DNA of 64,000 bases from Chlamydiales bacterium (GCA_024233435.1 JACKPQ010000001.1:660582-724581); one strand, 5' to 3'; counted from the first letter of the stretch, positions 22,176 to 62,092 are shown. Numbers and translations: made by a program. Notes: generated by a model from the letters alone, not told the origin.

Positions 22176-23111
22176 ATGAAAAAATTTTCCCCATGCGTTA
22201 GACTAGGATTGATGAGAAAGTTATTTGTTGTTTTTTTGATAGTGGGGGGCTTTTTTGCTCTGGAGCGCTTATGTCATAAAGCAACAGATGGGTTTGCTCT
22301 CAATAGAATTGCTTATCCACTTGATGTGGAAGTTGTTGAAAGCAACAAACCCCTTTCGGTCGAGCACCAGTTTGCCCTGAATATTCTGCGTACTGAAAAA
22401 TTCTACTACTTAGGAAGTGGCGCGCAAGTCTATGCCTTTTGCACTAAGGATAACCAGTACGTCTTAAAGTTGTTTAAATTCCACCACATGCGCATTCCTC
22501 CGATTGTGAGTAAGCTCCCTTTGACTAAAGGGCTAGAGAAATTGCGCAAAGAAAAAATCGATTTTAAAACAAATATTATCAAAGACGTTTTTAATAGCTT
22601 TACAATCGCCTACAATCACTTGAAAGAAGAGACAGCTCTATTGCTTGTCCACCTAAATCGAACGAACCATCTAAATGGCAGCGTGCACATCGTCGACCGG
22701 ATCAACAATGAATATAATCTCGATCTCGATAACACCTATTTTGTCCTACAGCATTATGCCACGCTTGCCTATGATCAAATTGATACCTGGATGGAGCAGA
22801 AAGAAATCACCAAAGCCCGCAATGGCATACGCTCTTTAGTGAAATTGGCTGCCAAGCGCTGTCAAAAAGGTATCATGGATAAAGATCCTGATTTCAGCAC
22901 TAACTTTGGCTTTATCAACGGTAAAGCCAGGCAAATTGATATTGGTCGATTTGCCCACAATATTAACGAGTGTAAACCCGATATTTACGGGCCCGAGATG
23001 ATCCGAATCACGCGCCCTTTTAGAAATTGGCTCGAAGCGCATCACGAAGCCCTAGTTGAGGTATTAGATGAAGAAGTGGAAAGGATATCCGGGCCGCAGG
23101 CTGGCATTTAA
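22176..23111 (+). CDS. Membrane-anchored protein-kinase-like protein, paralogue 1
   Basis: An N-terminal TM is followed by ERLCHKATDGF. A Gly-rich loop-like YLGSGAQVYAF and YVLKLFK (beta3-Lys-like) are present, then DKDPDFSTNFGF (catalytic-loop-like D....N) and QIDIGRF (DFG-like). Confidence 0.55.
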   Translation: MKKFSPCVRLGLMRKLFVVFLIVGGFFALERLCHKATDGFALNRIAYPLDVEVVESNKPLSVEHQFALNILRTEKFYYLGSGAQVYAFCTKDNQYVLKLFKFHHMRIPPIVSKLPLTKGLEKLRKEKIDFKTNIIKDVFNSFTIAYNHLKEETALLLVHLNRTNHLNGSVHIVDRINNEYNLDLDNTYFVLQHYATLAYDQIDTWMEQKEITKARNGIRSLVKLAAKRCQKGIMDKDPDFSTNFGFINGKARQIDIGRFAHNINECKPDIYGPEMIRITRPFRNWLEAHHEALVEVLDEEVERISGPQAGI

Positions 23112-23937
23112 TGCTCTCATATTTTTCGCTTGTTTTACTCTTGTAGAACGCCTCTGTCATTTGGCTACAGATGGTTTTTCCGTGATGCGTATTTACCCTC
23201 CATTTCAAATAGACTCATTTTTTGATCCTCCTGCACCAAGTCAAGAGGTTTGCAAGCACCTTAATCAAAGCTACCGTTATCTAGGATCTGGGAGTCAAAG
23301 TTTTGCTTTTCTATCTGAAGATGGTCAATACGTCCTTAAATTTTTCAAGCTTAAAACCGGCTACTGGAGAGTTCCAAGCTTATCACGCCCAAAACGCAGG
23401 CGTGAATCTTTCACAGCGGCTTTTCAAAGTTGTTTGATCCACGCAGACACTTTTAAAGATGAATCAGGCGTTGTATATTGTCACTTAAAAGCCTCTAATC
23501 ACAATCTGCCTACAGTCACACTAATTGACCGCAATCGAAGGCTTTTGTCATTAGACCTATCCACCCTTCCTTTTGTTCTTCAAAAGTACGCCGAACCTGT
23601 AGATCAACGATTGCTACGGTTTAAAAAGGCAAATGATCGCAAATCAGCTGAGCAAACAATTGATCAACTTTTCAACGTTCTTCTAAAGCGCTATCACTTG
23701 GGCCTTTCAGACCGTGATCCCAATTTGATCACTAACTTTGGATTCATCGATAATCAAGCCGTTTCAATTGATGTGGGAGGTCTTGTCAATAACAGGCAAG
23801 ACCTCAAAACTTACTTTTGTGAGCACGAAATCCTCAAGGCTAAACATAAATGCAACCGCTGGCTATATAAGCACAACCCAGATCTTGTTGATCACGTAGA
23901 GAAAATTGTTGAAGACATAATTTCTTCAGAGCGTTAG
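23068..23937 (+). CDS. Membrane-anchored protein-kinase-like protein, paralogue 2
   Basis: Same architecture as paralogue 1: TM + ERLCHLATDGF, YLGSGSQSFAF, YVLKFFK, DRDPNLITNFGF, SIDVGG. The annotated start overlaps paralogue 1 by 44 nt. Confidence 0.55.
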   Translation: MKKWKGYPGRRLAFNALIFFACFTLVERLCHLATDGFSVMRIYPPFQIDSFFDPPAPSQEVCKHLNQSYRYLGSGSQSFAFLSEDGQYVLKFFKLKTGYWRVPSLSRPKRRRESFTAAFQSCLIHADTFKDESGVVYCHLKASNHNLPTVTLIDRNRRLLSLDLSTLPFVLQKYAEPVDQRLLRFKKANDRKSAEQTIDQLFNVLLKRYHLGLSDRDPNLITNFGFIDNQAVSIDVGGLVNNRQDLKTYFCEHEILKAKHKCNRWLYKHNPDLVDHVEKIVEDIISSER

Positions 23938-23970
23938 AATGTGAAAGATTAACAACTTTACGGAGCTACT

Positions 23971-25569
23971 ATGAAAAAGATGTGCGTTTTCACTCTATCA
24001 CTGGTCTGTTTGATGCTGAGCGGATGCTCAGAAAAAGAGACCTGCGGCAAAGCGGATCAGAAAATCCTAAAGATTTGTTATGATCACAATCCAACAACGC
24101 CTGATCCTCGCCGCGGTGGGGATATGGTCACAAATGTTTCCTCCTTTATGCTTTTTGAAGGACTGACTGCCACTACTAAAGAAGGTGAGCTTGAGCCATC
24201 TCTTGCGCAAAGCTACGAAATCTCAGAAGATAAAACCGAGTACACCTTTCATCTACGTCCATCTAAATGGTCTGATGGCGTGCCTTTAACCGCTCATGAT
24301 TTCGAATATAGTTGGAAAACGCTTCTCTCACCTGATTTCCCCTCGCCTTGCGCTTTTTTGCTTTACCCAATCAATAACGCCCGCCAAGCTAAGGAGGGAA
24401 ACGTTTCCACTGATGAAATTGGCGTAAAAGCTCTTGACGATCATACTTTGCTAGTCAAATTGGAAAAACCCTGCCCTTACTTCCTTAAGCTTGTCTCTTT
24501 CTATACTTTTTATCCTATCCCTAAACACATAGACATAGCCAACCCTGATTGGGCTTTCCACCCATCTAGCGATACGGTTTCAAATGGCCCTTTCAAAATC
24601 AAATCATGGCAATTTGGCATTGAAATTGATTGTGCGAGAAATGAGAATTACTGGAATGATAAGGCAGTCCACTTAGATGGAATCAATATCAGCATCATTT
24701 CTGATCCTAATACGTCCCTACAAATGTTTGAGCAAGGTAAATTTGACTGGATCGGAGATCCTGTCTCTCCAATCCCTGTTGATGCTCTTGCCAATAGCAA
24801 CTGCGTTTTTTCAAACTCTATTGCAGCTTGTACGTTTGTCCCCTTCAATGTCGACAGATTTCCCTTTAATAACGCTAATATCCGCAAAGCTTTCTCCTAC
24901 GCTATGAACAGGGAAGCAATCACTCAACACATCACACAAATGGATGAAGAACCAGCAACGCGTTTTGTTCCATCTGTTTTTGCTGGCTACGATCAAGAAG
25001 AGCTCATACCAGCTCAAGGCGATAAGCAAAAAGCTTTAGAGTTTTTTGCTCTTGGTTGCCAGGAGTTAGGGATAAATGCCAAAGATTTCCCTACTTTGAC
25101 GCTGATTTCTCCTGTGGCTGGGCATTACAACAAACTTGCACAGGCCCTACAACAACAGCTAAGGGATGTCCTCAATGTAAATATTCAGATCAGCGATAAA
25201 GATCTTAAGCTTGTACTTGATGATCTTGTGAAGCGCAATTACGACTTTGGTCTTGTTATGCTTGTTGCCCAATATCAAGATCCAATGAATATTTTTGAGC
25301 GCTTTATGTTTAAACAAACACCTAAAAACTACTCGGGATTTGAAAATTCCAATTATATCTCTCTTATTGACGCCTCGTTTTACGCAAAATCAGATGGTGA
25401 GCGAAACCAGATCTTTAGTGAAGCAGAAAAGCTTTTAGCTAACGAAATGCCCTACGCACCCCTTTATTTTTATAACTCTCATTCATTAATGAAGCCAAAT
25501 GTAAAAGGGTTATTCATGACACCTGTAAGCACTCTACACTTCCGGGATGTTGATTTCATAGAAGAATAA
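23971..25569 (+). CDS. oppA: Peptide ABC transporter substrate-binding lipoprotein (family 5 SBP, OppA-like), copy 1
   Basis: Lipobox LMLSGC. Family-5 SBP segments DPRRGGD, LFEGLT and WSDGVPLTAHDFEYSW. Confidence 0.85.
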   Translation: MKKMCVFTLSLVCLMLSGCSEKETCGKADQKILKICYDHNPTTPDPRRGGDMVTNVSSFMLFEGLTATTKEGELEPSLAQSYEISEDKTEYTFHLRPSKWSDGVPLTAHDFEYSWKTLLSPDFPSPCAFLLYPINNARQAKEGNVSTDEIGVKALDDHTLLVKLEKPCPYFLKLVSFYTFYPIPKHIDIANPDWAFHPSSDTVSNGPFKIKSWQFGIEIDCARNENYWNDKAVHLDGINISIISDPNTSLQMFEQGKFDWIGDPVSPIPVDALANSNCVFSNSIAACTFVPFNVDRFPFNNANIRKAFSYAMNREAITQHITQMDEEPATRFVPSVFAGYDQEELIPAQGDKQKALEFFALGCQELGINAKDFPTLTLISPVAGHYNKLAQALQQQLRDVLNVNIQISDKDLKLVLDDLVKRNYDFGLVMLVAQYQDPMNIFERFMFKQTPKNYSGFENSNYISLIDASFYAKSDGERNQIFSEAEKLLANEMPYAPLYFYNSHSLMKPNVKGLFMTPVSTLHFRDVDFIEE

Positions 25570-25583
25570 CATTGGAGGTATCC

Positions 25584-27185
25584 TTGAGTGGATATAGAAA
25601 ACAAGCGGCCACTTTCATTGTTGGACTTCTTCTCATCTTGTCAGGGTGCAAAGGGAAAAAAGCCTGTGAGCACCCGCAAGTTCTTAGGTTAAACATGTCT
25701 GCTACACCCTCGACGTTTGACCCACGCCGCAGTGGTGATCTTGTATCAACCTGTCTTCATTTTTTTCTTTTTGAAGGTCTGACGCGTTTGACAGATGTCG
25801 GACCTGGGGAACCCGGAGTTGCAGAAAAGGTAGAGGTGTCCAAAGACGGTCTGACATATCTCTTTTCTCTGCGTCAATCGCTCTGGTCAGATGGCATGCC
25901 GGTGACAGCAAGCGATTTTGAATTTGCTTGGAAATCTATTCTTAATCCAGAGTTTCCCTGTCCTAACGCTCATCTGCTTTATTCAATTAAAAATGCCCAG
26001 CTAGCAAAGCAGGGCCTTGTAGATATTGATGAAGTGGGAATCGAGGTGATCGACCCTCAAACTCTTAAGGTTACATTAGAAACTCCAGCTCCCTATTTTT
26101 TAGAAATCGTTTCTTTTGCAACGCTGCATCCTGTTCCTAAGCACATTGCCCAAAATCAACAGAACTGGTCTGATCAAAATCCACTTGTTGTCAATGGTGC
26201 TTTTAAATTGGACAACTACGTCCGTAGACAGGAAATGGAATTGGTCACAAACGAAAAGTACTGGGATCACAAGCATATTCATCTAGAAAAAATTAAGGTT
26301 AGCTTCATTGAAGATGAGATGACCGCTTTGCAAATGTATGAGAGGGGTGAGCTCGACATTCTAGGGGGATACTACACGCGAATTCCTGAAACTGCAATTA
26401 GTTCATTGAAGAAATCGGGAGATTTGCGCACGTATCCAGTACCTGGCTCTACACATCTTGCGTTTAACTTAAAGCAATGGCCCTTCGATCAAGCATGCTT
26501 TCGAAAAGCTCTTTCAGCTGCTATCGATCGGCAAGAAATTGTTACCGGCATTACTCAACTCAACGAAAGCCCTGCCTACGACCTCATCCCTCCATCACTT
26601 AAAGATGAAATCATGATGCCCTATCATTTAACCCAAGATCCTAAGTCATTATTTGATGAAGCTTTAGATCAAATGAACATCACAAAAGATGAGCTACCCA
26701 CGATTACCCTTTCCTACTCAAAGGCTGCACTCTCCCATAACGTTGCACAGGCCATCCAGCAACAATGGACAGAAACGCTTGGAATCAATGTTCAGCTATC
26801 ATCAACCGAGCACAAACTCCACTTAAACCGTTTAATGAAGCATCAATTCCAGGTGGCCATTTTTAATATTTGGGCTCAGTATAGCGACCCCCTCAGTATC
26901 CTTGAACGCTTTGCTTATGCAGACAACCCTAAAAACTATATGAGTTGGAACAATCCCGATTATAACCTCTGTTTATCTCAACAGCCTAATTTACAGAAAC
27001 GGCGCAGTTTTTTAGCCCAAGCTGAGCGTATTTTACTCAATGAATCACCTATAGCTCCGATTTTTCACTGGCAACACGCAATTTTACAAAAGCCCTATTT
27101 GAAAAATGTTCATATTTCTAGAAGCGGTGGCATTTACTTACATGAGGCTTCAATTGACCTAGACGAAAAAGGTCAATATCGATAG
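25584..27185 (+). CDS. oppA: Peptide ABC transporter substrate-binding lipoprotein (OppA-like), copy 2
   Basis: Paralogue of copy 1 (DPRRSGD, LFEGLT, WSDGMPVTASDFEFAW; lipobox ILSGC). TTG 25584 lies 5 nt after GGAGG; the track start TTG 25572 overlaps that RBS. Confidence 0.85.
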   Translation: MSGYRKQAATFIVGLLLILSGCKGKKACEHPQVLRLNMSATPSTFDPRRSGDLVSTCLHFFLFEGLTRLTDVGPGEPGVAEKVEVSKDGLTYLFSLRQSLWSDGMPVTASDFEFAWKSILNPEFPCPNAHLLYSIKNAQLAKQGLVDIDEVGIEVIDPQTLKVTLETPAPYFLEIVSFATLHPVPKHIAQNQQNWSDQNPLVVNGAFKLDNYVRRQEMELVTNEKYWDHKHIHLEKIKVSFIEDEMTALQMYERGELDILGGYYTRIPETAISSLKKSGDLRTYPVPGSTHLAFNLKQWPFDQACFRKALSAAIDRQEIVTGITQLNESPAYDLIPPSLKDEIMMPYHLTQDPKSLFDEALDQMNITKDELPTITLSYSKAALSHNVAQAIQQQWTETLGINVQLSSTEHKLHLNRLMKHQFQVAIFNIWAQYSDPLSILERFAYADNPKNYMSWNNPDYNLCLSQQPNLQKRRSFLAQAERILLNESPIAPIFHWQHAILQKPYLKNVHISRSGGIYLHEASIDLDEKGQYR

Positions 27186-27196
27186 TCTTAAGCTTT

Positions 27197-29275
27197 ATGG
27201 ACCATCTAGACATCGAGTGCGCTCATCCTTACCCTGCTGGCTATGAGGATATTTTCCCAGAATTTATTGCATATATTAAAAAAGTGATATGCCGCTCCCT
27301 GCCTGATGATTTTATGCATTGCGGGCCAGAAGGTGTCTCTAAGGCCATTGACCAACTAAAAGATAACTTACCAATTGTTGAGTTTTCAAACCCAACATCT
27401 GTACCTTGCACAATCCAACTTAACGTTATCACTTTTAGCAAGGACACCCACGGAGCTGGACGCTTTTTGTGCGACCTTATCAATCGCTGGCTTATCCCAG
27501 GGAAACAGATCCAGATTGGGATTTCCCACTCTCTGATATTTTATTTTAAACAAGCTCCTACCAAAGAGTTTTTTATCCACATCTTAGGTGGTTACATTCA
27601 AGACAATGCTGAGCTTCAAATTGTTAAACGTCAATTTCCAAAGTTAAGAAGTGAAATTCAAACGATTCTCCGCTCGGTTGTTCATGCACGTAAGGTCATT
27701 GCATCTAACGTTATTGGCATTGAACATAAACGCACTTTTATTGAAGAAAATCTGCTCTCATTGCTTGATAGGCCGAAAAAAGATTTGGATCAAACAATGC
27801 ATGACCTCATGCATCAGTTTTTCATTCGTGCATCGTCTGAATACAATATTGAAAAAATCAAAGAAAACTTTGCTCGACTAGTCCACAAGGCCCCCCATCA
27901 AGTTGATCGAGATATCTTTAACGAAATTCAGCACTATGTTCTGCTATTTCGCGATCTTTTTATGGCCGCCAGGACTCGTCACCACCTTTATAGAATCATT
28001 AGTTATAAATACCTCTTTCGTAAATCGATTGCATATGCTGTTCGGGAAAATCCCAATCGTCGCTATATGCCCATAAAGTTTTTACCAGCAGTTCTAGAGG
28101 AAAACCAACGCGTGCTGGGGCTTATTGTCGGGTACAATTCACTGAGTGAAAATGAAGTTTTTGAAGCGCGTCATATTTTAGCTGCTGTACGCACCTATTT
28201 GAGCGATGCGCAAATCGTCCCTAACTCCTACATTGTTGATAATCGCAAAGATGCTCAAGTCCGCACCTGCTATCTGGAAATTACAAATAAAAATCAAATC
28301 CCCCTTACACCAAAAGAGCTTGCCTTACTTCGAAACAAATTACCAAAAGAGCTTCCCTCACGCATTGAATCAATCAGCCACCACCTTTTTGTCCACCGAA
28401 ACGAAGAAGAGGTCATGAGAAATATTCTTATCCTTAGTAAACAGCTTAAATTTGTGCGGGATATCCCTCAGGTTATTATCAACTTTGATAAGCAGACAGA
28501 ATCTACTCTTTGTTTCACTGTTATTTTGCTGCGCTTGATTAAGCCTGATTCTATTCCGCTGCGACAACTGCTAAATAAGGATGAGAATAAGTTTACATTC
28601 TTTGACTATGATGTAAAAATCGTTGGAAATTTACGAAAAAAATACCCTAAAGAAGCTAATGTTTTTGAAATGCGTGTCGATAAACACCTCTATTTGAGAG
28701 GCGATAATTCAATCGATCTCTATCGAGCCCGTCAAGCTGTTATGGGGCAATTGGTTGACCTGGTTGGAGAAGTGCGCGATTACAATGGAGGCATGATTTC
28801 AAAACAAACTGAGGCACTTGAAGAACTACGCTCTCTTTTAAAACCAGAAGCTATTAGCAACGATTTCCTATTAGAAAACTTTTTCTACTCCACAGTTCCA
28901 ACCTACATGCAAAGCGTAATCCCTGTAGACCAGTATCGGACTCTTTTTCTATTTCTTAACACAATCGCTGAAAACCCTTCAAGAGAGCAACCCTATCAAA
29001 TGCAGTATTCCATTAAAGAGGAATTTTGCATCATTGCCATTGGGGCTGTGGATAGCACCTTTAAAGAAAATATTGCCCTAGCCATTGATCAGCTCAACAT
29101 ACGCGCCCCTGAGATTTGCGTGACCTCAGTTAGGATCTACGATCTTTTTTGCGTCGGCTATCTTTATCGGTATGAAAATAAGAAAAGAGCTGAAGAGCTT
29201 ATCAGCGCTGTTAAGCAATCTTTAGCACAATGGGAAACAACCCTTAAAAAATCTGTGGACCTTGTAGCGAGATGA
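27197..29275 (+). CDS. Large hypothetical protein (692 aa)
   Basis: Uninterrupted ORF 11 nt after oppA copy 2. Its stop overlaps the start of the next gene (ATGA). No motif recognised. Confidence 0.6.
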   Translation: MDHLDIECAHPYPAGYEDIFPEFIAYIKKVICRSLPDDFMHCGPEGVSKAIDQLKDNLPIVEFSNPTSVPCTIQLNVITFSKDTHGAGRFLCDLINRWLIPGKQIQIGISHSLIFYFKQAPTKEFFIHILGGYIQDNAELQIVKRQFPKLRSEIQTILRSVVHARKVIASNVIGIEHKRTFIEENLLSLLDRPKKDLDQTMHDLMHQFFIRASSEYNIEKIKENFARLVHKAPHQVDRDIFNEIQHYVLLFRDLFMAARTRHHLYRIISYKYLFRKSIAYAVRENPNRRYMPIKFLPAVLEENQRVLGLIVGYNSLSENEVFEARHILAAVRTYLSDAQIVPNSYIVDNRKDAQVRTCYLEITNKNQIPLTPKELALLRNKLPKELPSRIESISHHLFVHRNEEEVMRNILILSKQLKFVRDIPQVIINFDKQTESTLCFTVILLRLIKPDSIPLRQLLNKDENKFTFFDYDVKIVGNLRKKYPKEANVFEMRVDKHLYLRGDNSIDLYRARQAVMGQLVDLVGEVRDYNGGMISKQTEALEELRSLLKPEAISNDFLLENFFYSTVPTYMQSVIPVDQYRTLFLFLNTIAENPSREQPYQMQYSIKEEFCIIAIGAVDSTFKENIALAIDQLNIRAPEICVTSVRIYDLFCVGYLYRYENKKRAEELISAVKQSLAQWETTLKKSVDLVAR

Positions 29276-30141
29276 AACGCCTCATCCTCATTCCAATTTT
29301 GACTATCCTATTTCTAGCTTACAATACGCACTTCAAAAGAACTAAGGGCTTTTGCGTTGAAAAAGTCAAAGCCTATTCACGCCCGGCTGATTCAAAATAT
29401 GACATGCCACAATCTGACTTTGATGCACAATCTGCTTTAAATCAAACCTTCTACTACTTGTCTAGCGGTGCGAGCATGTATGTCTTTGTCTCAGAGGATC
29501 AGCGCTATGTTTTAAAGCTATTTAAACAACGTCATATGCGGCCGTTTTCTGTTTATGAAAAGTTGATCGGTTATCCACTGATTCCAAGCAAGCAAAGATC
29601 TCTTAATAACCGACTCCAATTTAGAAAAAAAGCCTTTGATAGCTGCTTGATTGCCTATTCAAAATTTCGCGACCAAACTGGTGTGCTCTACATGCATCTT
29701 AACCCCACCTCTCATCTTAATGTCCGTTTGCGCCTTGTTGATCATAAAGGATCCCATCTTTTGCTAAATGCTGACAAGGAAGAATATTATATCCAACGTA
29801 AAGGCGAGGGTATCATCGATTGCATTTGCAAATGGCACAGTGAGGGTGAGCGTGAGACCATCCGCAATGCACTTAAATCTCTTGTGGAGCTTATCATCGC
29901 AAGGTGTGAAAGGGAAATTGGAGATTTTGACAACTGCTCTAAAAACTTTGCCTTTATCGATGGTAAAGCCATAGAAATTGACATCGGTGAATTTTGGAAT
30001 GATCCCGGTGTAAAAGAGCGTGTGCATATCAACGCTCACATCATTACAGCAACGTTTGACTTGAGAAATTACCTTGCAAAGCATTACCCTGAGTTACGCG
30101 ATGATTTAGATGAGATCTTAAGAGAGTATGGCGCAGTATAA
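29272..30141 (+). CDS. Membrane-anchored protein-kinase-like protein, paralogue 3
   Basis: N-terminal TM, YLSSGASMYVF, YVLKLFKQRHMR, DFDNCSKNFAF, EIDIGEF. These are the same motif set as 22176..23111 and 23068..23937. Confidence 0.55.
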   Translation: MKRLILIPILTILFLAYNTHFKRTKGFCVEKVKAYSRPADSKYDMPQSDFDAQSALNQTFYYLSSGASMYVFVSEDQRYVLKLFKQRHMRPFSVYEKLIGYPLIPSKQRSLNNRLQFRKKAFDSCLIAYSKFRDQTGVLYMHLNPTSHLNVRLRLVDHKGSHLLLNADKEEYYIQRKGEGIIDCICKWHSEGERETIRNALKSLVELIIARCEREIGDFDNCSKNFAFIDGKAIEIDIGEFWNDPGVKERVHINAHIITATFDLRNYLAKHYPELRDDLDEILREYGAV

Positions 30142-30577
30142 AACACATGCAAAATTCAACCTATTTATCGCCCTGCCCAGCTTTAGCTTAATTGTCTATT
30201 TCTACTTTACACAAGATGTGCGCCTGCTCAGCATTTTTATTGCTGCATTTGCCTACTCAACCCTTTTCATGAACCCTGATCTTGACCTAGCGCACCAAAT
30301 AAAATTCTTAAGCATTCGCGGAGTTCTAACATCTCCATTTCGCCTCTATTCGAAGATTTTTTCTCACAGAGGATTTTCCCACTCCATCGTCTTTGGCACG
30401 CTCTCGCGTCTTCTATTTTTAGCTGTGCTCGCTCTGCTTTGCATGTGGATCTATACGCAGGCAAACCCTTCTTTAAACGGTGTTTGGAGCTTTATTCTCA
30501 ATCACCAAACACCGCTTCTCTATGCTTTTTCTGGGATATTTTTAGCAGATCTTTCACACTTGGCACTTGATATATGA
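30128..30577 (+). CDS. DUF2227-like putative metal-binding membrane protein
   Basis: STLFMNPDLDL and FSHRGFSHSIVFGTLSRLLFL parallel, from memory, the DUF2227 pattern (GPDLD ... HRS.LSHG...GT..RL.YL). There are 3-4 hydrophobic helices. The gene overlaps both neighbours. Confidence 0.5.
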   Translation: MAQYKTHAKFNLFIALPSFSLIVYFYFTQDVRLLSIFIAAFAYSTLFMNPDLDLAHQIKFLSIRGVLTSPFRLYSKIFSHRGFSHSIVFGTLSRLLFLAVLALLCMWIYTQANPSLNGVWSFILNHQTPLLYAFSGIFLADLSHLALDI

Positions 30578-31458
30578 TGCCTCTTAAGATTGAAAACCTA
30601 TCTAAAAAATATGGCTCATTCTGCGCTGTTAATAATGTCTCTTTTGACTTAAAGCCAGGGGAAGTTTTTGGGCTGCTTGGACCAAATGGTGCTGGGAAAA
30701 CCACCATTATCTCTTGCATCATATCGCTTGTTAAACCTTCCAAAGGATCCATTTCCGTATTTGGAAAATCCAACCCTCAAATTACCAAGCAACAGATTGG
30801 ATTTGTTCCGCAAGAACTCATTAGCCATGGCTATTTTACAGTTGAGGAAGTGATGCACATTCACGCCTCTTACTTTGGCCTTTGGCGATGCTCTGCCCAT
30901 ATTGAATATCTTCTGAAAAAACTTGATTTATGGACCCATCGACACAAACATGTCAAACAACTCTCGGGGGGCATGAAAAGGCGTTTGCTGATCGCTAAAG
31001 CCCTTGTTCATAAGCCAAAACTCCTTTTACTCGATGAGCCTACCGCAGGTGTTGACGTTGAGCTGCGCGCTCAGTTATGGGAATTTGTCCGCGATATGCA
31101 AAAGGAAGGAATGACGATTCTATTGACAACACATTATTTAGAAGAGGCTGAAAAGCTATGCGATCGGGTCGGCATTCTGCACCATGGCCACTTGCGCACA
31201 GTTGGGCATACTCAAGGGCTAATCAAAGAGCTCACTCATCGTGAGATCGTTTTAACCCTCTCAAAAAGCGTGGGCAAAATTCATCATCCTGCCCTTCGCT
31301 TGCAAGACGACCATACCCTTATTTTTCTTGTTCCCAGCTCTTATCAGCTCTGCACATTGCTCTTAGAGCTCAACCTGTCTATTGATTCCATCCAAGACCT
31401 ACATATCCGTGAGGGCAACTTAGAAGATGCTTTTCAGCGCGTTCTGGGGGAAACATGA
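30574..31458 (+). CDS. ABC transporter ATP-binding protein (ABC-2/DrrA-type exporter)
   Basis: Walker A GPNGAGKTT, signature LSGGMKRR, Walker B LLLLDEPTAGVD, H-loop TTHYLEEAE. Confidence 0.88.
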   Translation: MMPLKIENLSKKYGSFCAVNNVSFDLKPGEVFGLLGPNGAGKTTIISCIISLVKPSKGSISVFGKSNPQITKQQIGFVPQELISHGYFTVEEVMHIHASYFGLWRCSAHIEYLLKKLDLWTHRHKHVKQLSGGMKRRLLIAKALVHKPKLLLLDEPTAGVDVELRAQLWEFVRDMQKEGMTILLTTHYLEEAEKLCDRVGILHHGHLRTVGHTQGLIKELTHREIVLTLSKSVGKIHHPALRLQDDHTLIFLVPSSYQLCTLLLELNLSIDSIQDLHIREGNLEDAFQRVLGET

Positions 31459-32234
31459 GTAGATCACCATTTTGGGGCGTATTACTGCGAGAGATCAAAC
31501 GCTATCTCAAAGTGCCCTACCAGACACTTGGAACACCCCTGATCAATTCATTGCTCTATCTCTTTATTTTTGGACTGAGCTTAGGGCAGAGCATCACCTT
31601 GCCCGGCTACCCATCCTACCTATTTTTCCTGATCCCTGGACTCATCATGATGACAACTATAAAAAACGCCTTTGATAACGCCTCCAGCTCTGTGGTTTCA
31701 TCAAAATATTCTGGTGAGCTCATCGACTTGCGCATCACCCCTTTAACCCCCACTCATATCGCATCAGGGTTTTGTCTTGCTGGCCTCTCCCGCGGACTAA
31801 TCGTTGCCATAATCACTTATATCACAAGCGCTCTACTCGTCTACTTCACCCAACCCACAAATCTACCTATCACACACCCCTGGATCCTTTTATACTTCAT
31901 TCTAGTTAGCGGGTGCGGTTTTGCCTCAATGGGGCTTACCATTGGCATGCTTTCGAAAAACTTTGACACACTCAATGCCTTTAGTTCTTTTTTGCTTGTC
32001 CCCCTGATTTATCTAGGAGGTGTTTTCTTCTCGCTCAATTCCCTGCACCCTTTTTGGCAACTTATCAGCCGGTTTAACCCCCTGCTCTATATGATCAGTG
32101 GTGTTCGCTATGGGTTCTTAGGGAAATCTGATGTGAGCGTTTCCCTTGCAATGCTTATCAGCTTTCTATTCCTCTGTTTTTTTTATGCGTGTGCCCTTCT
32201 AACTTTGCGAAAAGGTAAAAATTATCATTGGTAA
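31455..32234 (+). CDS. ABC-2 type transporter permease
   Basis: Six hydrophobic segments and an ATGA overlap with the ATPase gene. The size is typical of ABC-2 permeases. Confidence 0.8.
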   Translation: MSRSPFWGVLLREIKRYLKVPYQTLGTPLINSLLYLFIFGLSLGQSITLPGYPSYLFFLIPGLIMMTTIKNAFDNASSSVVSSKYSGELIDLRITPLTPTHIASGFCLAGLSRGLIVAIITYITSALLVYFTQPTNLPITHPWILLYFILVSGCGFASMGLTIGMLSKNFDTLNAFSSFLLVPLIYLGGVFFSLNSLHPFWQLISRFNPLLYMISGVRYGFLGKSDVSVSLAMLISFLFLCFFYACALLTLRKGKNYHW

Positions 32235-32283
32235 TAAATTCTAAACCAAGTAGGCTCTGAGCAAACTGACTAGGAGGTCCTGT

Positions 32284-32541
32284 ATGTGCCTGCCCTGTGT
32301 GGACAAAAGTAAAGCAAAAAACGTTAAACAAATACCATTTACAACCTTTAATCAATTGAAAAAAGACATCATCTTCGAATATTTAAAGTTAAAAGAAGCT
32401 GGAATTATTAAGCAGCAATATCAAATAGAAAAACGCAGTGTTATTGATCCACCAGATAAAGACTACATCTTAGCCATCACTCATTCTTTGCAAGATATCC
32501 CATTGAGCGAAAAAGAAACCGTACGCATTATTTTTGTTTGA
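32284..32541 (+). CDS. Small hypothetical protein (85 aa)
   Basis: The ORF stop overlaps the ATG of the downstream peptidase (TGATG). No motif recognised. Confidence 0.35.
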   Translation: MCLPCVDKSKAKNVKQIPFTTFNQLKKDIIFEYLKLKEAGIIKQQYQIEKRSVIDPPDKDYILAITHSLQDIPLSEKETVRIIFV

Positions 32542-34229
32542 TGAGACCTCTAAACATCGACACTTTAACGCACAAGGCTCTGCGCTTTGGTCAACTCTGC
32601 ATGGACAGGGGAACGCTTTACTGGACTGAGAGCCGTCCAGATGAAAAAGGGCGCAGCGTTCTCATGACCCTTGAAGGGGAAGTGCTGCCCAAAACCACAA
32701 ATATAAAAAGCCGCGTGCATGAGTATGGGGGAGGTTCCTATCTCGTATCTGGTGGCAATATCATATTTACCAACGACACAGATCAACGCGTCTATTTTAA
32801 CGATCAACCCATCACCACAAAAGAACAGGGAAGATTTGCAGACTTTTGCTTTGACGCTAAGCGCGCTTGTATCTACGCAGTGCGCGAGGTCCAAAGCACA
32901 AACACACTTGCACGCATTGACCTTAATGGCATAGTGACAGATATCGCCACAGGCGCTGACTTTTACGCAGAGCCACGCCTTAGCCCCGACGGCTCTTGCA
33001 TTGTCTGGATCAGCTGGAATCATCCCAATATGCCCTGGGACAACACCACCCTTACTCAATGGGATTTTAGCTCGCCCCCAAAAATTTTAGCAGAAAACGC
33101 CTCCATCCAACACCCCATGTGGACCTTAAACAATACATTGTACTACCTCACAGATCAATCTGGTACCTGGAATTTTCCTAGCTATCCCCTCCCAGCAGAC
33201 CTTGGCTACCCACCATGGCTCCTAAACATGAAGCGCTACTGCTTTCACCAAGACAAAATCGCTGCAATTGCAACCACTAATGCTACAGACACACTTTACC
33301 TCATTGACCTAAAGGATAAAACTCACACAGTTATTGAAACACTCTTCACATCCTTCAATGAAATCGTCTCCGACGGGGTCAACCTTTACACCATTGCCTC
33401 AGGCCCTCACGATCTTCCTACCTTAGTTTCTATCCTGCCACAAACACAAATCAAAACCATCCGCAAAAGTAGCGATATTAACCTTAAGAGCCCCTCCCAG
33501 CCGATCTCAATCAATTATGGCAGTGCACACATGTTCTTTTATCCACCTTCTAATAAGCTCTACGACCTTCCACCGCTGATTGTTTCTCCACACAGCGGGC
33601 CCACAGCTCACTATGCACCCACTTTAAACCTAACCGTTGAGTATTGGACCTCGCGTGGATTTGCCTTTGCCGCAGTGAACTACGCAGGCTCAAGCGGCTT
33701 TGGGAAAGCTTATCGCAACCGTCTTAATGGCCAATGGGGTATTTTAGACGCAGCCGACTGCATCAACGCACGCCAATATTTAAAAGACCAGCAACTCATC
33801 GACTCTACCAAATGCGCCATCATAGGCAGTAGCGCAGGCGGTTTTACAGCCCTTGCAACTATTACACAAACCGATGCCTTTGCAGCCGCTATTTCCCTTT
33901 ATGGCATATGCGATGTTAAAGCTCTTTGCACATGCACACACAAATTCGAGTCACACTACAACAACACTCTCATCGGAACTTATTCCCACTCTCCCATTCA
34001 CCACGTCGATAAAATCCGCACACCTGTTCTTCTCATTCATGGGTCAGAGGACAAAATCGTGCCCCCATCACAGTCTGAAGCCCTTTATAGCGCCCTTAAA
34101 GCAAGAAGCATCCCTTGTGAGTACAAGCTGATCGAAGGTGAAGGGCATGGATTTCGCTCTGCAGATGCCATCAAAACCTCTTTCCTCACTCAAGAAAGCT
34201 ATCTCAAATCAGTGCTTGAACTAAAATAA
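32541..34229 (+). CDS. S9-family serine peptidase (prolyl oligopeptidase/acylaminoacyl-peptidase-like)
   Basis: A beta-propeller-sized N-terminal half is followed by a C-terminal alpha/beta hydrolase with the nucleophile elbow GSSAGG, Asp context HGSEDKIVP and His context GEGHGF. Confidence 0.85.
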   Translation: MRPLNIDTLTHKALRFGQLCMDRGTLYWTESRPDEKGRSVLMTLEGEVLPKTTNIKSRVHEYGGGSYLVSGGNIIFTNDTDQRVYFNDQPITTKEQGRFADFCFDAKRACIYAVREVQSTNTLARIDLNGIVTDIATGADFYAEPRLSPDGSCIVWISWNHPNMPWDNTTLTQWDFSSPPKILAENASIQHPMWTLNNTLYYLTDQSGTWNFPSYPLPADLGYPPWLLNMKRYCFHQDKIAAIATTNATDTLYLIDLKDKTHTVIETLFTSFNEIVSDGVNLYTIASGPHDLPTLVSILPQTQIKTIRKSSDINLKSPSQPISINYGSAHMFFYPPSNKLYDLPPLIVSPHSGPTAHYAPTLNLTVEYWTSRGFAFAAVNYAGSSGFGKAYRNRLNGQWGILDAADCINARQYLKDQQLIDSTKCAIIGSSAGGFTALATITQTDAFAAAISLYGICDVKALCTCTHKFESHYNNTLIGTYSHSPIHHVDKIRTPVLLIHGSEDKIVPPSQSEALYSALKARSIPCEYKLIEGEGHGFRSADAIKTSFLTQESYLKSVLELK

Positions 34230-34251
34230 ATATCATGCAAAACTGACGCTT

Positions 34252-35628
34252 ATGTTTTGCACCGTTGCCTCGATTTTTCTTGCCATCGCTGGTTGTCCAA
34301 ATGCAGATAACCAAGAGTATCCAAACGTCATGATTGAACAAGGTCAAGACGAAGAGGCTACATCTCCCCATCCAGCCATCGACACCATCACTCAGTTCTT
34401 TGGAACGCTTGTAGGATCTGGCCCTTATCCAGGCGTGCGCTCTACTTATGGTGGAACAGAGCTTATGGCCCAGCTTTCTCAAATTAACCAAGACCTCGAT
34501 CTACTTATCGGCCATGGCAGAACAGAAAAATACTACAAAGAGCATAACTTCGCCGTAAAAAGCCCCCATATCTTGCTCAGCGGCAAAATGGAAGGCACGG
34601 GGTTTATTGCGATCGATGCATCAGGCAGGCCCTCATCCAACATTGGCCTTACAGGCGCTGAACTCGATATTTTAGCAGCTTACAAAGCCGTTACAGCTTT
34701 TATGGTTATTCAGTATGAAAACTTCCCTTCGCCCATCATCAACAACCGCATCGCCAACCAAAACCTTTTCTTAGATGTTGCTTTTGTCACCCTTGGAGAT
34801 CTCAATCAGTTTCCAATGTACACCACCATCGGACAAACCTTTGTCCCATTTGGACAGTACAACTCTTACAATGGCTTCAACAACCCTCTCACAGAAATTC
34901 TCTTTCGCACTCTTGCAAATGATGGAACCGTCGGCTTTTATACAGACCACTTCCTCGGCCAATTTTTCTTCTTCAAAGGCAGCTCGCACGCAGATTCTGG
35001 AAACAACATCAACAACTTTGGATTTAACCTTGGCACTCACTTTAAAACCGAGCACACCAAAACACTTTGGCAAGTTTCATTCATCCGCAACGTAGCCGAC
35101 TCCCTCGGAATGCAGCTAGCCTTTGCAAATTCGCGCAATACAAACACTTTAAATCATGTTGTCCCAGGCATCAACACCAACATTAGCTTTGCCGTTGGCG
35201 ATCACTGGCACTTCGTTGGAGAGTACAACGGCTCATTGCGCTCATTTTCTGTAGCAGATATGGGCTACAGCACCAATGGTGGCCGCACATTTTCTGGCGC
35301 CCGCCCCCAAGCCTTTGATATTGAAGCTTCCTACCAATTCCAGATCGGAGAAAGACCCAGCGGCCTATCCCTTGGCTGGAGCCAGACCTTTGAAGCTGTC
35401 GGCTTTAACCTGCCTCGTTGGCGCCTCGATCTCACGTGGGCAACTTACATTTTCAAAAACACACTGCTATCCCTAGAATACATGCACAACAAACTCTACG
35501 GAAAAAACGACATTGCAACAGGCCAGCTTGCCTTTGGCCGCGGCGGCTCCATTCCCTACTACCGCAATCCGATCAACAAGGGCAACAGCGATAACACCCT
35601 CACCCTCGACCTTTCCTTTTATTGGTAG
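34252..35628 (+). CDS. Putative outer-membrane beta-barrel protein/porin (possibly lipidated)
   Basis: Lipobox-like LAIAGC. Alternating beta-strand patterns run throughout, and the C-terminus LTLDLSFYW ends in an aromatic residue, as OMP sorting signals do. Confidence 0.6.
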   Translation: MFCTVASIFLAIAGCPNADNQEYPNVMIEQGQDEEATSPHPAIDTITQFFGTLVGSGPYPGVRSTYGGTELMAQLSQINQDLDLLIGHGRTEKYYKEHNFAVKSPHILLSGKMEGTGFIAIDASGRPSSNIGLTGAELDILAAYKAVTAFMVIQYENFPSPIINNRIANQNLFLDVAFVTLGDLNQFPMYTTIGQTFVPFGQYNSYNGFNNPLTEILFRTLANDGTVGFYTDHFLGQFFFFKGSSHADSGNNINNFGFNLGTHFKTEHTKTLWQVSFIRNVADSLGMQLAFANSRNTNTLNHVVPGINTNISFAVGDHWHFVGEYNGSLRSFSVADMGYSTNGGRTFSGARPQAFDIEASYQFQIGERPSGLSLGWSQTFEAVGFNLPRWRLDLTWATYIFKNTLLSLEYMHNKLYGKNDIATGQLAFGRGGSIPYYRNPINKGNSDNTLTLDLSFYW

Positions 35629-37613
35629 CCAGTCGGCCTTCTATTTAAAACCTCGCTAACAATCACAGACCCTTGCCAAGTTCCCATAGAGACCTGTTTG
35701 ATGGTCGTGGGAAACTTTTTAGCCAATACATCGGTTCTGTCCCAGTTGTCAAATGAAGGGTTCAACCGATTAATTTTTACAATTTCTAACTTAGTTTTCC
35801 TTAAATCAACACGAAATAACCAGTCCTGACTATAATCGCCTCCTACCTCGAGCGTTGTGACATTTGACCCTTCTAAAAAACCCGCTCTTTTAAAACTCAT
35901 ATTTTTGACTACAAGAGCTGTGACTGTGTTTGATTTTAAGTATTGTCCTAAAGCCTTAAAAAATTCTTCGTCCTTGCCACCTATCTCTGGGGAGTCGATT
36001 GTCAAGACAGAGTCAGCTGTCAATCTGGAAAAAATGCTCTCGCATATGCCTTGCCTAATAGCGAGATGAATCAGGTCCTTTTCTAATAGCTGTTCTTGAT
36101 CCGCATGCTCAATCAAAAAGCTAGCCATTCCATCTGGATAGTTAGGCTCAGCAGCTAAGCTCTCATCTGTAATCCAAAATTTCAGTGAACCAGCCTTTTC
36201 CTTTAATTCAGGCAAGTTCCCTGTTACAATTAATTGTTCGAGCTCTATCAGCTTCCTTCTATGTTGAAACAAATCCTCACGCTCTTCATTCTCTTCCAAA
36301 TCAGAGAAACTTCCTGTATAAACTCTCCTAGTGTCTGTGTAATTATAGCCATCCTCATCTATTGCTAATCCATTCATTACAAGACAATTAACTTTTAAAT
36401 CACTGAAGATCTCAGACATTACAGCCTCTGTAAGGCCTGGGTTATCGCTTAGATTTAAATATTCCAGATCACAACGGTCTAAGCTAAGTCTTATAGCAAT
36501 GAAATCACTAAAGTTCAAAAAACTAGAACTTAAATCTAAATAACGAACTTTTGAGGTAGCAACGGCATTTATGCAAGCGTTCAGCAGCTTAGAATTTTTA
36601 CTTCTTAATCTCAAGTGGGTAACATTAAGCTTACCTATGCATAATAGCAAAAGCTCGAGTGCCGAGTCATTTTCCTCTGAAAAGCTAATGATATGCTCTT
36701 CAGGAGGGGCAACTTCAATTTCTAATAATTTAGCCTCACTAATTGCATCATCGGGAAAGCAAAAATTATTTGTGCTGAGTGCTTTGATTAAGAATAGTCT
36801 AATTTCATCTGAAGAACGAACTATTGTGGACGCTCTTATCACCTCCGATAGTGCGTCCTTATTGCCTTTTAAATGGCTTTGAATTGCATCCAAATTATTA
36901 CAGTTTATAGCACCACGAAACTTAGAAAAGTCGTCTCTTAAAATCTTTGAGTTAATAGGTACCAGAGCTATATTATTCCAATAAAATTTAAGTTTTTTCT
37001 CACCCATTTTTATTGCAAATACCTCTATATCCCGTACCGTCAATTTAGTTTCGCTCAAAACGATCGACTGAACAGATGAGTCTTTGATGCATTTTACCAA
37101 GCTGAATAGGTCAGCTTTGCTAAGATTACATTGGCTCAAATCTAACAGCTTGGTCTCAAACATTTTTAGATAATTGCGTAGCAAAAAGGAAAGCTTGTTA
37201 GTATACTCTTGACAATGACCTCCTAGAACGAGTGAGCGTTTATTGCACTTAGCATAATCATCACCTAAATTCTGAAAAATAAGTTGGGCAATCTCTGCTG
37301 AGCAATCCGTTTCAATATAGCCCAACAGCTGCTCACCACACAGTTCACTGAATTCACAAAGTATTTCTCTTAGCTTTTCTACATCCCTCTTATTTATAGC
37401 CTCACGGCACAAACCAGCTTGCTGAGCTAGCAGCCCATCGAGAAGGTAAGGCAGATTTTCATCTTCTTCGACCCGCCGCCGCTTGTATTCCTCCTTACCT
37501 AAGATTTGCCCTGCAGCTTTTCTTGCTTTTGAATCTGTACTGGACCCGTTTGCTGCATTGGGCTGATAGGACCCTAAAAAACGTTCACCACTAGGACCTG
37601 AAACGTTACTCAT
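35619..37613 (-). CDS. Large RNI-type leucine-rich-repeat protein (eukaryote-like, candidate effector)
   Basis: Repeated LDLSQCNLSKADLFSLVKCI, LDLSSSFLNFSDFIAI and LNLSDNPGLTEAVMSEI type units. No signal peptide. The N-terminus is unstructured and Ser/Gly-rich. Confidence 0.7.
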   Translation of the reverse strand: MSNVSGPSGERFLGSYQPNAANGSSTDSKARKAAGQILGKEEYKRRRVEEDENLPYLLDGLLAQQAGLCREAINKRDVEKLREILCEFSELCGEQLLGYIETDCSAEIAQLIFQNLGDDYAKCNKRSLVLGGHCQEYTNKLSFLLRNYLKMFETKLLDLSQCNLSKADLFSLVKCIKDSSVQSIVLSETKLTVRDIEVFAIKMGEKKLKFYWNNIALVPINSKILRDDFSKFRGAINCNNLDAIQSHLKGNKDALSEVIRASTIVRSSDEIRLFLIKALSTNNFCFPDDAISEAKLLEIEVAPPEEHIISFSEENDSALELLLLCIGKLNVTHLRLRSKNSKLLNACINAVATSKVRYLDLSSSFLNFSDFIAIRLSLDRCDLEYLNLSDNPGLTEAVMSEIFSDLKVNCLVMNGLAIDEDGYNYTDTRRVYTGSFSDLEENEEREDLFQHRRKLIELEQLIVTGNLPELKEKAGSLKFWITDESLAAEPNYPDGMASFLIEHADQEQLLEKDLIHLAIRQGICESIFSRLTADSVLTIDSPEIGGKDEEFFKALGQYLKSNTVTALVVKNMSFKRAGFLEGSNVTTLEVGGDYSQDWLFRVDLRKTKLEIVKINRLNPSFDNWDRTDVLAKKFPTTIKQVSMGTWQGSVIVSEVLNRRPTGYQ

Positions 37614-39423: not shown

Positions 39424-39842
39424 CAACCATTGAAAGACAACCTGTCACAATTGACAACCTCCCCAAGGAAGCTCACTCTGATTTTGCCGTGCGCATCACC
39501 GAGCACCAAGGAATCCGCGCCGTCCACTCATCTAATAGTACCGCCACGCTCATTACAAAAACCAAACCGCCCAGTCTCATTGCCCTCTTTGGAGATCCCA
39601 ACAGCTCTCCCTCATTTGCTCACTTCTTTGCCCCGCCCCGCTTCCTCGGCTCAGTCTTCCGCAATGCCCTCGTCAATGTCGATTTAGAAGAAGCTCTGAT
39701 CAAGTTAGAGCAAATCACATCCTCTTCTGAAGGTCAAAAGCGGCAGTTCAGATCTATAAATAAATTTCTTGATATTATGGAATTTTTTAATCGCATCTCT
39801 GAAGACATCTGTGCCTTCTGTGCCAAGTACCAAAAAGGTTAA
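39420..39842 (+). CDS. Hypothetical protein translationally coupled to the secretin gene
   Basis: ATGA overlap with the secretin stop. 140 aa, no signal peptide, no motif recognised. Confidence 0.5.
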   Translation: MTTIERQPVTIDNLPKEAHSDFAVRITEHQGIRAVHSSNSTATLITKTKPPSLIALFGDPNSSPSFAHFFAPPRFLGSVFRNALVNVDLEEALIKLEQITSSSEGQKRQFRSINKFLDIMEFFNRISEDICAFCAKYQKG

Positions 39843-58456: not shown

Positions 58457-58496
58457 GTTATCCTCCTGGTTGATTAACACCCGAAGTGTAACAGGT

Positions 58497-62007: not shown

Positions 62008-62092
62008 CGGAAGAGGAGGGATTCGAACCCCCGGTTGGTTTCCCAACTTCTGTTTTCAAGACAGACGCATTCGGCCACTCTGCCACTCTTCC
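62008..62092 (-). tRNA. tRNA-Ser (anticodon UGA)
   Basis: The reverse complement is GGAAGAGTGGCAGAGTGGCCGAATGCGTCTGTCTTGAAAACAGAAGTTGGGAAACCAACCGGGGGTTCGAATCCCTCCTCTTCCG. It has a 7-bp acceptor stem, the anticodon loop CTTGAAA, a long variable arm and the T-loop GGTTCGAATCC. CCA is not encoded. Confidence 0.9.

Follow-up and report, generated by a model that had tools for sequence, protein, structure and literature searches.

O-antigen chains are terminated and exported with the help of the kinase WbdD and the ABC-2 exporter Wzm/Wzt; WbdD, which also has a methyltransferase domain, does its work at the cytoplasmic face, ahead of export. Kinase-fold enzymes of the Fam20/CotH type have an N-terminal signal or anchor and act outside the cytoplasm. 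For the ABC-2 exporter YadGH of Escherichia coli, efflux of macrolides has been reported (PMC13462070). Residues 1-701 of L-GDH180, a large (180-kDa) glutamate dehydrogenase (GDH) of Mycobacterium smegmatis, comprise three ACT-like domains of an unusual ββ-α-ββ-α topology, a PAS domain and three helical motifs, and this N-terminal segment has been proposed to act as metabolite sensors (PMC8175468). Here we compare with these systems a locus in a 64,000-nucleotide stretch of DNA from an uncultured member of the Chlamydiia (Chlamydiales bacterium, GCA_024233435.1, JACKPQ010000001.1:660582-724581; the whole stretch is called the window below). In it, five consecutive genes at 27197-32234 (+) encode a protein of 692 amino acids (aa) that we call X692, a kinase-like protein (K3), a DUF2227-like membrane protein, and the ATPase and the permease of an ABC-2 exporter. 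Two further kinase-like paralogues (K1 and K2) and two OppA-type substrate-binding lipoproteins are encoded upstream on the same strand.

Judged from the sequence, our best reading is that the five genes are the middle part of an operon-like, co-directional array of modular make-up, with no single obligate complex as their product. The packed array spans 22176-35628, extending beyond the five genes and adding an S9-family peptidase and an LbtU-type porin. We would assign a probability of about 0.45 to a composite reading in which OppA-type lipoproteins and a cytoplasmic ligand sensor make up an envelope and nutrient-uptake array, joined by the K proteins as kinases and by a separable efflux module; the descriptive parts of this reading are firm, while the functional parts are not. 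The initial annotation of this DNA had taken the tight coupling of the five genes as the mark of a stoichiometric functional unit, and had mentioned the two kinase-like paralogues and the two peptide-binding lipoproteins ahead of them only as upstream context. These four genes are present as it described them, and the lipoproteins are indeed of the OppA type, with SBP_bac_5 domains. It is within this context that the truly conserved linkage is found: an OppA-type gene followed by X692, an arrangement seen in most chlamydial lineages sampled and often with translational coupling of the two genes.

The two OppA-type genes lie at 23971-25569 and 25572-27185 (+), directly ahead of X692 at 27197-29275 (+); the second of them probably has its true start at a TTG codon at 25584, five bases after GGAGG. 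Both products carry an LSGC lipobox and match Pfam SBP_bac_5, a family of cluster C substrate-binding proteins, with E values of the order of 1e-73 (4e-73 and 9e-73); the scores, 247 and 246 bits, are above the cutoff of 32.4. Their best NCBIfam model is OppA, at about 209 bits against the equivalog cutoff of 947 for NF011684, so that the equivalog level is not reached and the proteins are OppA-type by their sequences, with no demonstrated OppA orthology. For the comparison across relatives, 80 loci around X692 homologues were fetched (the best 80 of 285 genomes) together with 11 more found through neighbour look-ups, and the first 87 of these loci, designated by L and a number, were analysed by tblastn and by clustering of all open reading frames (ORFs). 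Of 71 informative loci, 52 have an OppA-type gene as the next gene upstream of X692 on the same strand. A median of about 10 nucleotides (nt) separates the two genes, and in 14 loci they overlap by 4 nt; the 4-nt overlap in L082 is seen also in an independent gene call. The genes farther out on both sides vary among lineages, and the pair persists through these reshuffled flanks across lineages whose X692 proteins are only 30-40% identical.

This persistence bears directly on a rival account, namely that the genes share no function at all and that their order is synteny inherited in compact genomes in which overlaps are frequent, co-transcription serving economy only. We consider such an account unlikely, although it deserves to be kept in view. 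It would fit the separability of the components across lineages, the frequent overlap of genes elsewhere in the window (10 of 24 adjacent pairs), and the finding that in another clade even the housekeeping genes polA-coaE-rho are kept beside OppA and X692. What it explains less readily is why OppA-X692 should survive, often with the 4-nt overlap, where the flanks have been reshuffled and X692 has diverged to 30-40% identity, and why the S9 peptidase and the porin stay close to X692 across the clade to which the window belongs (clade 1, see below).

The upstream partner is not the same in every lineage. In nine loci of the Parachlamydiaceae/Waddliaceae type, a 260-aa AA_kinase protein of the aspartokinase type takes the place of OppA upstream of X692, and it lacks the usual ACT regulatory domains, although its neighbour is predicted to be made up of ACT-like domains; X692 might serve in trans as the regulatory subunit of the adjoining ACT-less aspartokinase. 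The nine loci are L064, L066, L069, L070, L072, L073, L075, L076 and L079 (for example L070:7555-8337, PF00696, E 1e-46).

Some further neighbours of X692 may be recorded here. In loci of the Rhabdochlamydiaceae type, X692 is followed by a protein of 434-480 aa with the PI3/PI4-kinase-like motifs GxGGAY, DNDAHxxN and IDNG (L032:12061-13398, L040:12073-13386, L048:12145-13533 and L082:12180-13484), for which the Pfam PI3_PI4_kinase model gives an E value of only 0.0096. That this protein is a divergent member of the K family was ruled out by hhalign, which returned a probability of 0.2. A 717-aa protein with no Pfam match, encoded at 15712-17865 (-) in the window, has counterparts in 23 related loci, where its gene lies a few genes upstream of OppA-X692 on the other strand, and is another conserved chlamydial protein; a 273-aa family, likewise with no Pfam match (cluster 5, 19 loci), behaves in the same way.

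X692 itself has no match at the sequence level in Pfam, NCBIfam or the PDB, the last searched also with phmmer and with a profile of 30 sequences; and when 30 members of the X692 alignment were compared with Pfam at E<=5, no family was matched by more than 5 members and none of the families was GDH-related. There are at least 623 homologues in the protein collection, and X692 is matched in at least 285 GTDB species-representative genomes. The named matches among the top 120 homologues all bear chlamydial labels except one, from Verrucomicrobia. About a dozen of the 80 retained records bear the names of other phyla; in one record so labelled, L082, a relative of L032 and L036, Pfam identifies the neighbours as chlamydial-type Pmp-like autotransporters and the polA-coaE-rho region. 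No genuine Chlamydiaceae genome is found among the best 80 of the 285 genomes. With no signal peptide in its translation, X692 is predicted to be cytoplasmic.

The AlphaFold2 (AF2) model of X692, with a mean predicted local distance difference test score (pLDDT) of 79 and a predicted TM-score (pTM) of 0.49, consists of repeated ββ-α-ββ-α secondary-structure units. Its sole significant Foldseek match is the M. smegmatis L-GDH180 structure 7jsr (E 1.5e-7, probability 1.0), and the match becomes about 100,000-fold weaker with the cryo-electron microscopy models of L-GDH180 from which the flexible N-terminal domains are missing. Because of this match and of the domain description in PMC8175468, we read X692 as a stand-alone protein with the architecture of the ACT-like N-terminal region of L-GDH, with a putative capacity for ligand binding. 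At the level of structure the two share a length of about 700 residues and the ACT-like ββ-α-ββ-α topology with helical motifs. In contrast to L-GDH180, X692 stands alone: it ends at residue 692, without the GDH catalytic domain or the C-terminal domain, has no sequence-level relation to the enzyme and no PAS domain that we could identify, and has an OppA-type gene as its genomic partner. Comparison of four domain slices of X692 with one another by hhalign gave no significant relation that would indicate internal repeats. Of its residues 41 are invariant, mostly charged and concentrated in 381-580.

The kinase-like proteins form a second family of the locus. K1 (311 aa, 22176-23111, +) and K2 (289 aa, 23068-23937, +), whose genes overlap by 44 nt, are 31% and 28% identical, respectively, to K3 (289 aa, 29272-30141, +); the start of K2 at 23068 is needed to retain a conserved signal or anchor segment, and K1 falls into K-family cluster 2 of the ORF clustering. 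For none of the three does Pfam or NCBIfam give a match. Pfam searches with 14 family members at E<=5 gave nothing recurrent, the APH and other kinase models included, and a profile search of the PDB gave nothing relevant. The description of these proteins as kinase-like holds nevertheless at the level of fold and motif. The AF2 model of K3 (pLDDT 87, pTM 0.82) has a bilobal kinase fold and finds structures of the protein-kinase-like (PKL) superfamily in all 16 Foldseek matches at E<=1e-3 and in essentially all 50 matches listed, led by UbiB/ABC1-like proteins, Rio, WbdD, AceK and APH(3'). With the UbiB/ABC1 proteins (MSMEG_1954, Rv3197, COQ8A), Rio1/Rio2, WbdD, AceK and APH(3') it shares a Gly-rich loop, the β3 Lys, an Asp...Asn catalytic loop and an Asp-x-Gly motif, and like small-molecule kinases it is without a long activation segment.

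These catalytic elements (Gly loop, β3 Lys, catalytic-loop Asp...Asn and DFG-like Asp) are present in K1, K2 and K3 alike, and across 150 representatives of the family they are nearly invariant: G66 in 150 of 150, K82 in 150, D220 in 147, N225 in 150 and D237 in 149. Because of the near-invariance of this Lys/Asp/Asn/Asp set, the K proteins are predicted to be active enzymes rather than pseudokinases. An exhaustive profile search with clustering at 50% identity gave 2,565 family clusters; 1,842 have E<=1e-30. Lengths are uniform, at about 290 aa. Most of the representatives looked up are unlabelled, and the few that are named come from chlamydial metagenome-assembled genomes (MAGs), except for one from Anaerolineae. 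Two outlying observations concern this family: in one representative (P0195) a K domain is fused to a hydrolase of the BAAT/acyl-CoA-thioesterase type, and in a Rhabdochlamydiaceae MAG eight tandem K paralogues (L089:4343-11046; hmmsearch E 1e-72 to 1e-102) lie beside two porin genes of the Legionella_OMP type.

The N-termini set the K proteins apart from their fold neighbours. In 137 of 147 representatives the N-terminus is positively charged and leads into a hydrophobic segment some 15-20 residues long, and in K1 a positively charged n-region precedes a 15-aa hydrophobic segment; K3 has an N-terminal membrane anchor or signal. In several members a lipobox comes just ahead of the conserved GF with which the domain begins (as in LSLSGC-KRAQGF), the K paralogue right after X692 in L018 has the lipobox LLIGC, and one representative (P0138) consists of two tandem K domains behind a signal peptide cleavable at AHA|VS. 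From these features it seems quite likely that the family is exported and membrane-tethered. Unlike UbiB, Rio, WbdD, AceK and APH(3'), which act in the cytoplasm, the K proteins carry export signals, and they belong to no Pfam kinase family. The Fam20/CotH type does not appear among the listed Foldseek results either, and the K proteins, at about 290 aa, are much smaller.

Export signals also invite the thought that the K proteins are secreted effectors, which would cross the inner membrane by Sec, leave the cell by type II secretion or in outer-membrane vesicles, and act as kinases in the host cell, their proximity to OppA-X692 being incidental. Tandem expansion of K paralogues to as many as eight copies, the cleavable signal peptide of at least one member, a recurrently neighbouring gene for a GspD secretin, and the presence in the window of ankyrin-repeat proteins, which are typical of effectors, would all suit this idea. 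Most K proteins, however, have an anchor that looks uncleaved or a lipobox, either of which would retain them on the bacterial membrane, and the great uniformity of catalytic residues and length over the 150 representatives is unlike what is seen in fast-evolving effectors. We therefore regard an effector role as improbable.

Turning to the five-gene order itself, every coordinate of the five ORFs and of their four overlapping junctions was reproduced from the ORF table and from the junction sequences, read directly from the window. X692 and K3 join at GAGATGAAAC, with ATGA at 29272-29275; K3 and the DUF2227 gene overlap by 14 nt (30128-30141); the DUF2227 gene and the ABC ATPase gene join at ATATGATGCC, with ATGA at 30574-30577, and the ABC ATPase and ABC-2 permease genes at AACATGAGT, with ATGA at 31455-31458. 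The start codons are backed by N-termini conserved among homologues. With longest-ORF starts, same-strand adjacent pairs overlap in 6 of 11 cases within the array and in 10 of 24 elsewhere in the window. If junctions are taken to be independent, four overlaps in succession would have a chance of about 0.03, which is mildly beyond expectation. Because overlap is common elsewhere in the window, overlap alone says little in favour of a stoichiometric unit.

In a neighbour-joining tree of 78 X692 sequences there are two major groups, and the window belongs to the one that we call clade 1. A DUF2227 gene is found downstream of X692 only in clade 1, in several deep branches. The ABC-2 pair lies downstream in the window and in L002, L005, L012, L017, L029, L056, L086 and L039, and downstream K copies are found in the window and in L001, L002, L005, L017, L018 and L086. 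The order X692, K (once or twice), DUF2227, ABC, ABC-2 recurs in L002, L005, L017 and L086; L012 and L029 have the five-gene order without K, and in L017 two opposite-strand genes separate the DUF2227 gene from the ABC genes. Altogether the full order recurs in about 7 of the 87 related loci, all within clade 1. Within clade 1 there is a nested subclade from which K, DUF2227 and the ABC genes have been lost but in which the S9 peptidase remains; in the other major group (Rhabdochlamydiaceae and Parachlamydiaceae types) no K, DUF2227 or ABC-2 gene lies downstream of X692. Elsewhere in chlamydiae, DUF2227 is a solitary gene, with yicC and rnhB on either side or with an M16 peptidase gene ahead of it, and K genes occur as single copies in an unrelated conserved context or as three-copy arrays on the opposite strand, with copy numbers from 0 to 8 across loci. 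Gene-neighbourhood analysis of the kind the initial annotation had called for thus gives a divided answer: the order is kept in several deep branches of clade 1 and is absent from the other major clade. Since the components are separable and the order is clade-restricted, the five-gene order is not obligate; it is an old arrangement within one deep clade and is not phylum-wide.

How far, then, can the idea of one machine be maintained, in which X692, K3, the DUF2227 protein, the ABC ATPase and the ABC-2 permease act in fixed stoichiometry to modify, for example phosphorylate, and then transport a peptide or a lipid-linked substrate? Four consecutive overlapping junctions speak for it, as does the recurrence of the order in the deep branches L002, L005, L017 and L086 and, without K, in L012 and L029. 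There is also a loose analogy in WbdD with Wzm/Wzt, WbdD being among the fold neighbours of K3: in both cases the genes for an enzyme with a kinase fold and for an ABC-2 exporter are neighbours. The analogy stops there, as the window has no glycosyltransferase genes at this place and K and ABC-2 genes are not consistently linked. The machine would moreover have to do without K in L012 and L029 and tolerate the interrupting opposite-strand genes in L017, while the block is missing from the other major clade and from the nested clade 1 subclade. Its supposed parts are found elsewhere, DUF2227 alone in housekeeping contexts and K in 0-8 copies, and they are predicted to be in different compartments, X692 in the cytoplasm, the K proteins exported, and the DUF2227 and ABC-2 proteins in the inner membrane; and overlaps are common across the genome. 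The proposal of a stoichiometric five-protein unit is thus not borne out by the comparison, and we regard a single machine as quite unlikely.

The composite reading instead treats the last three of the five genes as a module of their own. The DUF2227/YdjM-like protein (149 aa, 30128-30577, +), a small polytopic membrane protein with conserved His/Asp motifs, matches PF09988 at 63.3 bits against a cutoff of 25 (E 3.6e-17, profile positions 4-159 of 169), which upholds its initial assignment as DUF2227-like; the YdjM model gives 25.3, below its cutoff of 29. A literature search on DUF2227 returned no papers. The exporter assignment stands as well: the ATPase (294 aa, 30574-31458, +) matches ABC_tran at 115.8 bits (E 3e-33) and the permease (259 aa, 31455-32234, +) matches ABC2_membrane at 106.8 bits (E 1.5e-30), both above the Pfam cutoffs. 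The best NCBIfam models are the drrA subfamily TIGR01188 for the ATPase (233.8 bits, below the cutoff of 312.45) and PRK15066/YadH for the permease (201.7 bits, below the cutoff of 225), near-miss scores by which the pair is to be classed as YadGH/DrrAB-like rather than as a member of YadGH. Like E. coli YadGH and DrrAB, it consists of one ATPase gene and one ABC2_membrane gene; unlike them, it is preceded and overlapped by a DUF2227 gene.

The kinship with YadGH and DrrAB brings up xenobiotic or antibiotic defence, with the K proteins acting in the manner of aminoglycoside or macrolide phosphotransferases and the pump exporting the compound. APH(3') and the macrolide-binding UbiB-like protein Rv3197 are indeed among the fold neighbours of K3, the best families of the pump are DrrA and YadH, with macrolides as the reported export substrate of YadGH (PMC13462070), and the window has an MFS (major facilitator superfamily) gene as well as a set of MFS, HlyD and outer-membrane efflux genes. 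Known antibiotic kinases, however, are cytoplasmic, whereas the K proteins bear export signals; the linkage of K with the ABC-2 pair is inconsistent; and no match to APH or any other kinase Pfam model appears even at E<=5. Defence of this kind is, in our view, very unlikely.

Downstream of the exporter the array continues with an S9-family serine peptidase of the prolyl-oligopeptidase type without a signal peptide (32538-34229, +; Peptidase_S9, E 4e-44) and ends with an LbtU-family outer-membrane porin (34252-35628, +; NCBIfam NF033652, 212.5 bits against a cutoff of 90). The peptidase gene recurs downstream of X692 throughout clade 1, and the porin gene also stays nearby. LbtU being a siderophore porin type, one may ask whether the locus handles metals, with a metallophore taken up through this porin, MFS transporters, NikA/CntA-like binding proteins and a metal-binding DUF2227 protein. 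The LbtU model is matched above cutoff, the array has a divergent MFS gene as its neighbour, the Pfam description of DUF2227 mentions metal binding, and both binding proteins do match the NikA and CntA models, though more weakly: the OppA/PRK09755 scores are about twice those of NikA and far above those of CntA. As no siderophore or opine synthesis genes are present among the window ORFs scanned, and the recurrent neighbour is an S9 peptidase, we find metal uptake the least probable of the alternatives and highly unlikely.

In the composite reading, X692 would be a cytoplasmic ligand-binding regulator, co-expressed with orphan peptide-binding lipoproteins. Its ligand would be a small metabolite, with amino acids or products of peptides as the most likely candidates, and its binding would link peptide uptake to metabolism; the S9 peptidase farther downstream would cleave the imported peptides. 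Such an amino-acid-sensing theme fits the nearby peptidase and porin, and also the replacement of OppA by an ACT-less aspartokinase in one lineage. The place of action of K1, K2 and K3 would be extracytoplasmic: anchored to the membrane on its periplasmic side, they would use host-derived ATP to phosphorylate a small-molecule or envelope substrate, and not a protein. Chlamydiae import host ATP via Npt1 and Npt2, transporters of the inner membrane (PMC13463777), from which we infer that periplasmic ATP usable by the K proteins is conceivable. Extracytoplasmic activity of such kinases, unusual for Gram-negative bacteria, would then be conceivable in chlamydiae. The DUF2227 protein and the YadGH/DrrAB-like pump, both predicted to reside in the inner membrane, would form a separable export or efflux module, co-expressed with the OppA-X692 and K modules and added downstream of them in one deep clade.

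A bolder joint version of these ideas seems to us rather unlikely. It would make the K proteins periplasmic ATP-dependent kinases acting on incoming peptides, muropeptides or an envelope component, which would be possible in these energy parasites because their supply of host ATP passes through the periplasm; X692, for its part, would be an ACT-type sensor standing alone and reporting the resulting amino-acid supply, tied evolutionarily or structurally to the N-terminal region of the large GDHs, and the whole would be a nutrient-sensing and envelope-modification system specific to chlamydiae, without a counterpart in free-living bacteria.

A number of points weigh against the composite reading, all functional steps of which are inferred. 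For X692, the pTM of 0.49 leaves the domain arrangement uncertain, the global TM-score against 7jsr is low at 0.18, and the invariant charged residues could fit an enzyme as well as a pure sensor. For the K proteins, TM-scores to the fold neighbours of K3 are only 0.3-0.43, the topology is predicted from simple sequence rules only, and the charge bias flanking the K3 anchor is ambiguous. No OppB, OppC, OppD or OppF was found among the window ORFs scanned (most ORFs of at least 150 aa); OppBCDF genes are likewise not found beside OppA in the related loci L082 and L086, and what comes after OppA is X692 rather than a permease gene. A periplasmic binding protein and a cytoplasmic X692 have no obvious physical link. 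Finally, adjacency is weaker evidence here than in most phyla, because chlamydial genomes retain much synteny by descent.

Regarding novelty, a literature search that did not cover all journals found no described system with this combination of components, as the initial annotation had supposed, and no description of the X692 family, the K family, their linkage, a family of exported chlamydial kinases or an OppA partner of the ACT type. Judged from sequences and models, three things appear to be new: a PKL family, an ACT-like architecture that stands alone, and a conserved pairing of genes. They do not amount to a new category of system, as no new mechanism is shown. X692 and K are two large families without a Pfam or NCBIfam model, and both look confined to chlamydiae so far, so that they are possible lineage markers and targets. 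Chlamydiae depend on host peptides, amino acids and ATP, and much of their conserved gene content is without an assigned function; the OppA-X692 pairing provides a testable handle on how peptide uptake might be sensed. As a small protein that stands alone, X692 could also serve as a model of the N-terminal region, so far unexplained, of the large GDHs. An ATP-using kinase outside the cytoplasm, if true, would be unusual for a Gram-negative bacterium and plausible mainly in importers of host ATP.

As to the remaining features of the array, an 85-aa ORF at 32284-32541 (+) has a strong AGGAGG Shine-Dalgarno sequence and a stop codon that overlaps the start of the S9 peptidase gene. It has no Pfam match and no tblastn homologue in the 87 related loci, and is a doubtful gene, either lineage-specific or not a gene at all; its status as a conserved gene is unsupported. 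A promoter and terminator scan of 20-36 kb stayed at background and did not delimit transcripts, and Rfam gave one tRNA only across the whole window, with no riboswitch ahead of the array. A horizontal-transfer island was ruled out by the GC content, which is uniform at 40-46% throughout the window with no anomaly.

The rest of the window includes several other systems. An Mla-type lipid transport operon (9899-13249, +) encodes MlaE, an ABC ATPase, an MlaD-domain protein and then an AlgH-like (DUF179) protein, with overlap at all junctions, and is followed by the gene for an 828-aa protein with an inverse-autotransporter beta-domain of the intimin/invasin type (13257-15743, +). An MFS pump, an HlyD-type adaptor and an outer-membrane efflux protein are encoded at 39839-43956 (-), suggesting a tripartite efflux system; a paralogous MFS gene at 20543-22084 is divergent from K1. 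A 664-aa effector-like protein with no Pfam match (35619-37613, -) converges on the porin gene with a 10-nt overlap, and beyond it lies the gene for the GspD-type secretin (37888-39423, +), which is near X692 in at least 11 related loci. A fused glutamate-cysteine ligase and ATP-grasp protein, resembling the bifunctional glutathione synthetase GshF, is encoded at 44026-46071 (+). Three ankyrin-repeat proteins (47250-48494, -; 52036-53949, -; 56685-57395, +) are effector-like and typical of intracellular bacteria. Toward the end of the window, genes for an SprT-like/DUF2786/DUF7168 protein (58371-59516, +) and for a Zeta-toxin/AAA_33-like kinase (62694-63686, -) flank the tRNA gene at 62008-62092 (-), and may be the remnant of a mobile element.

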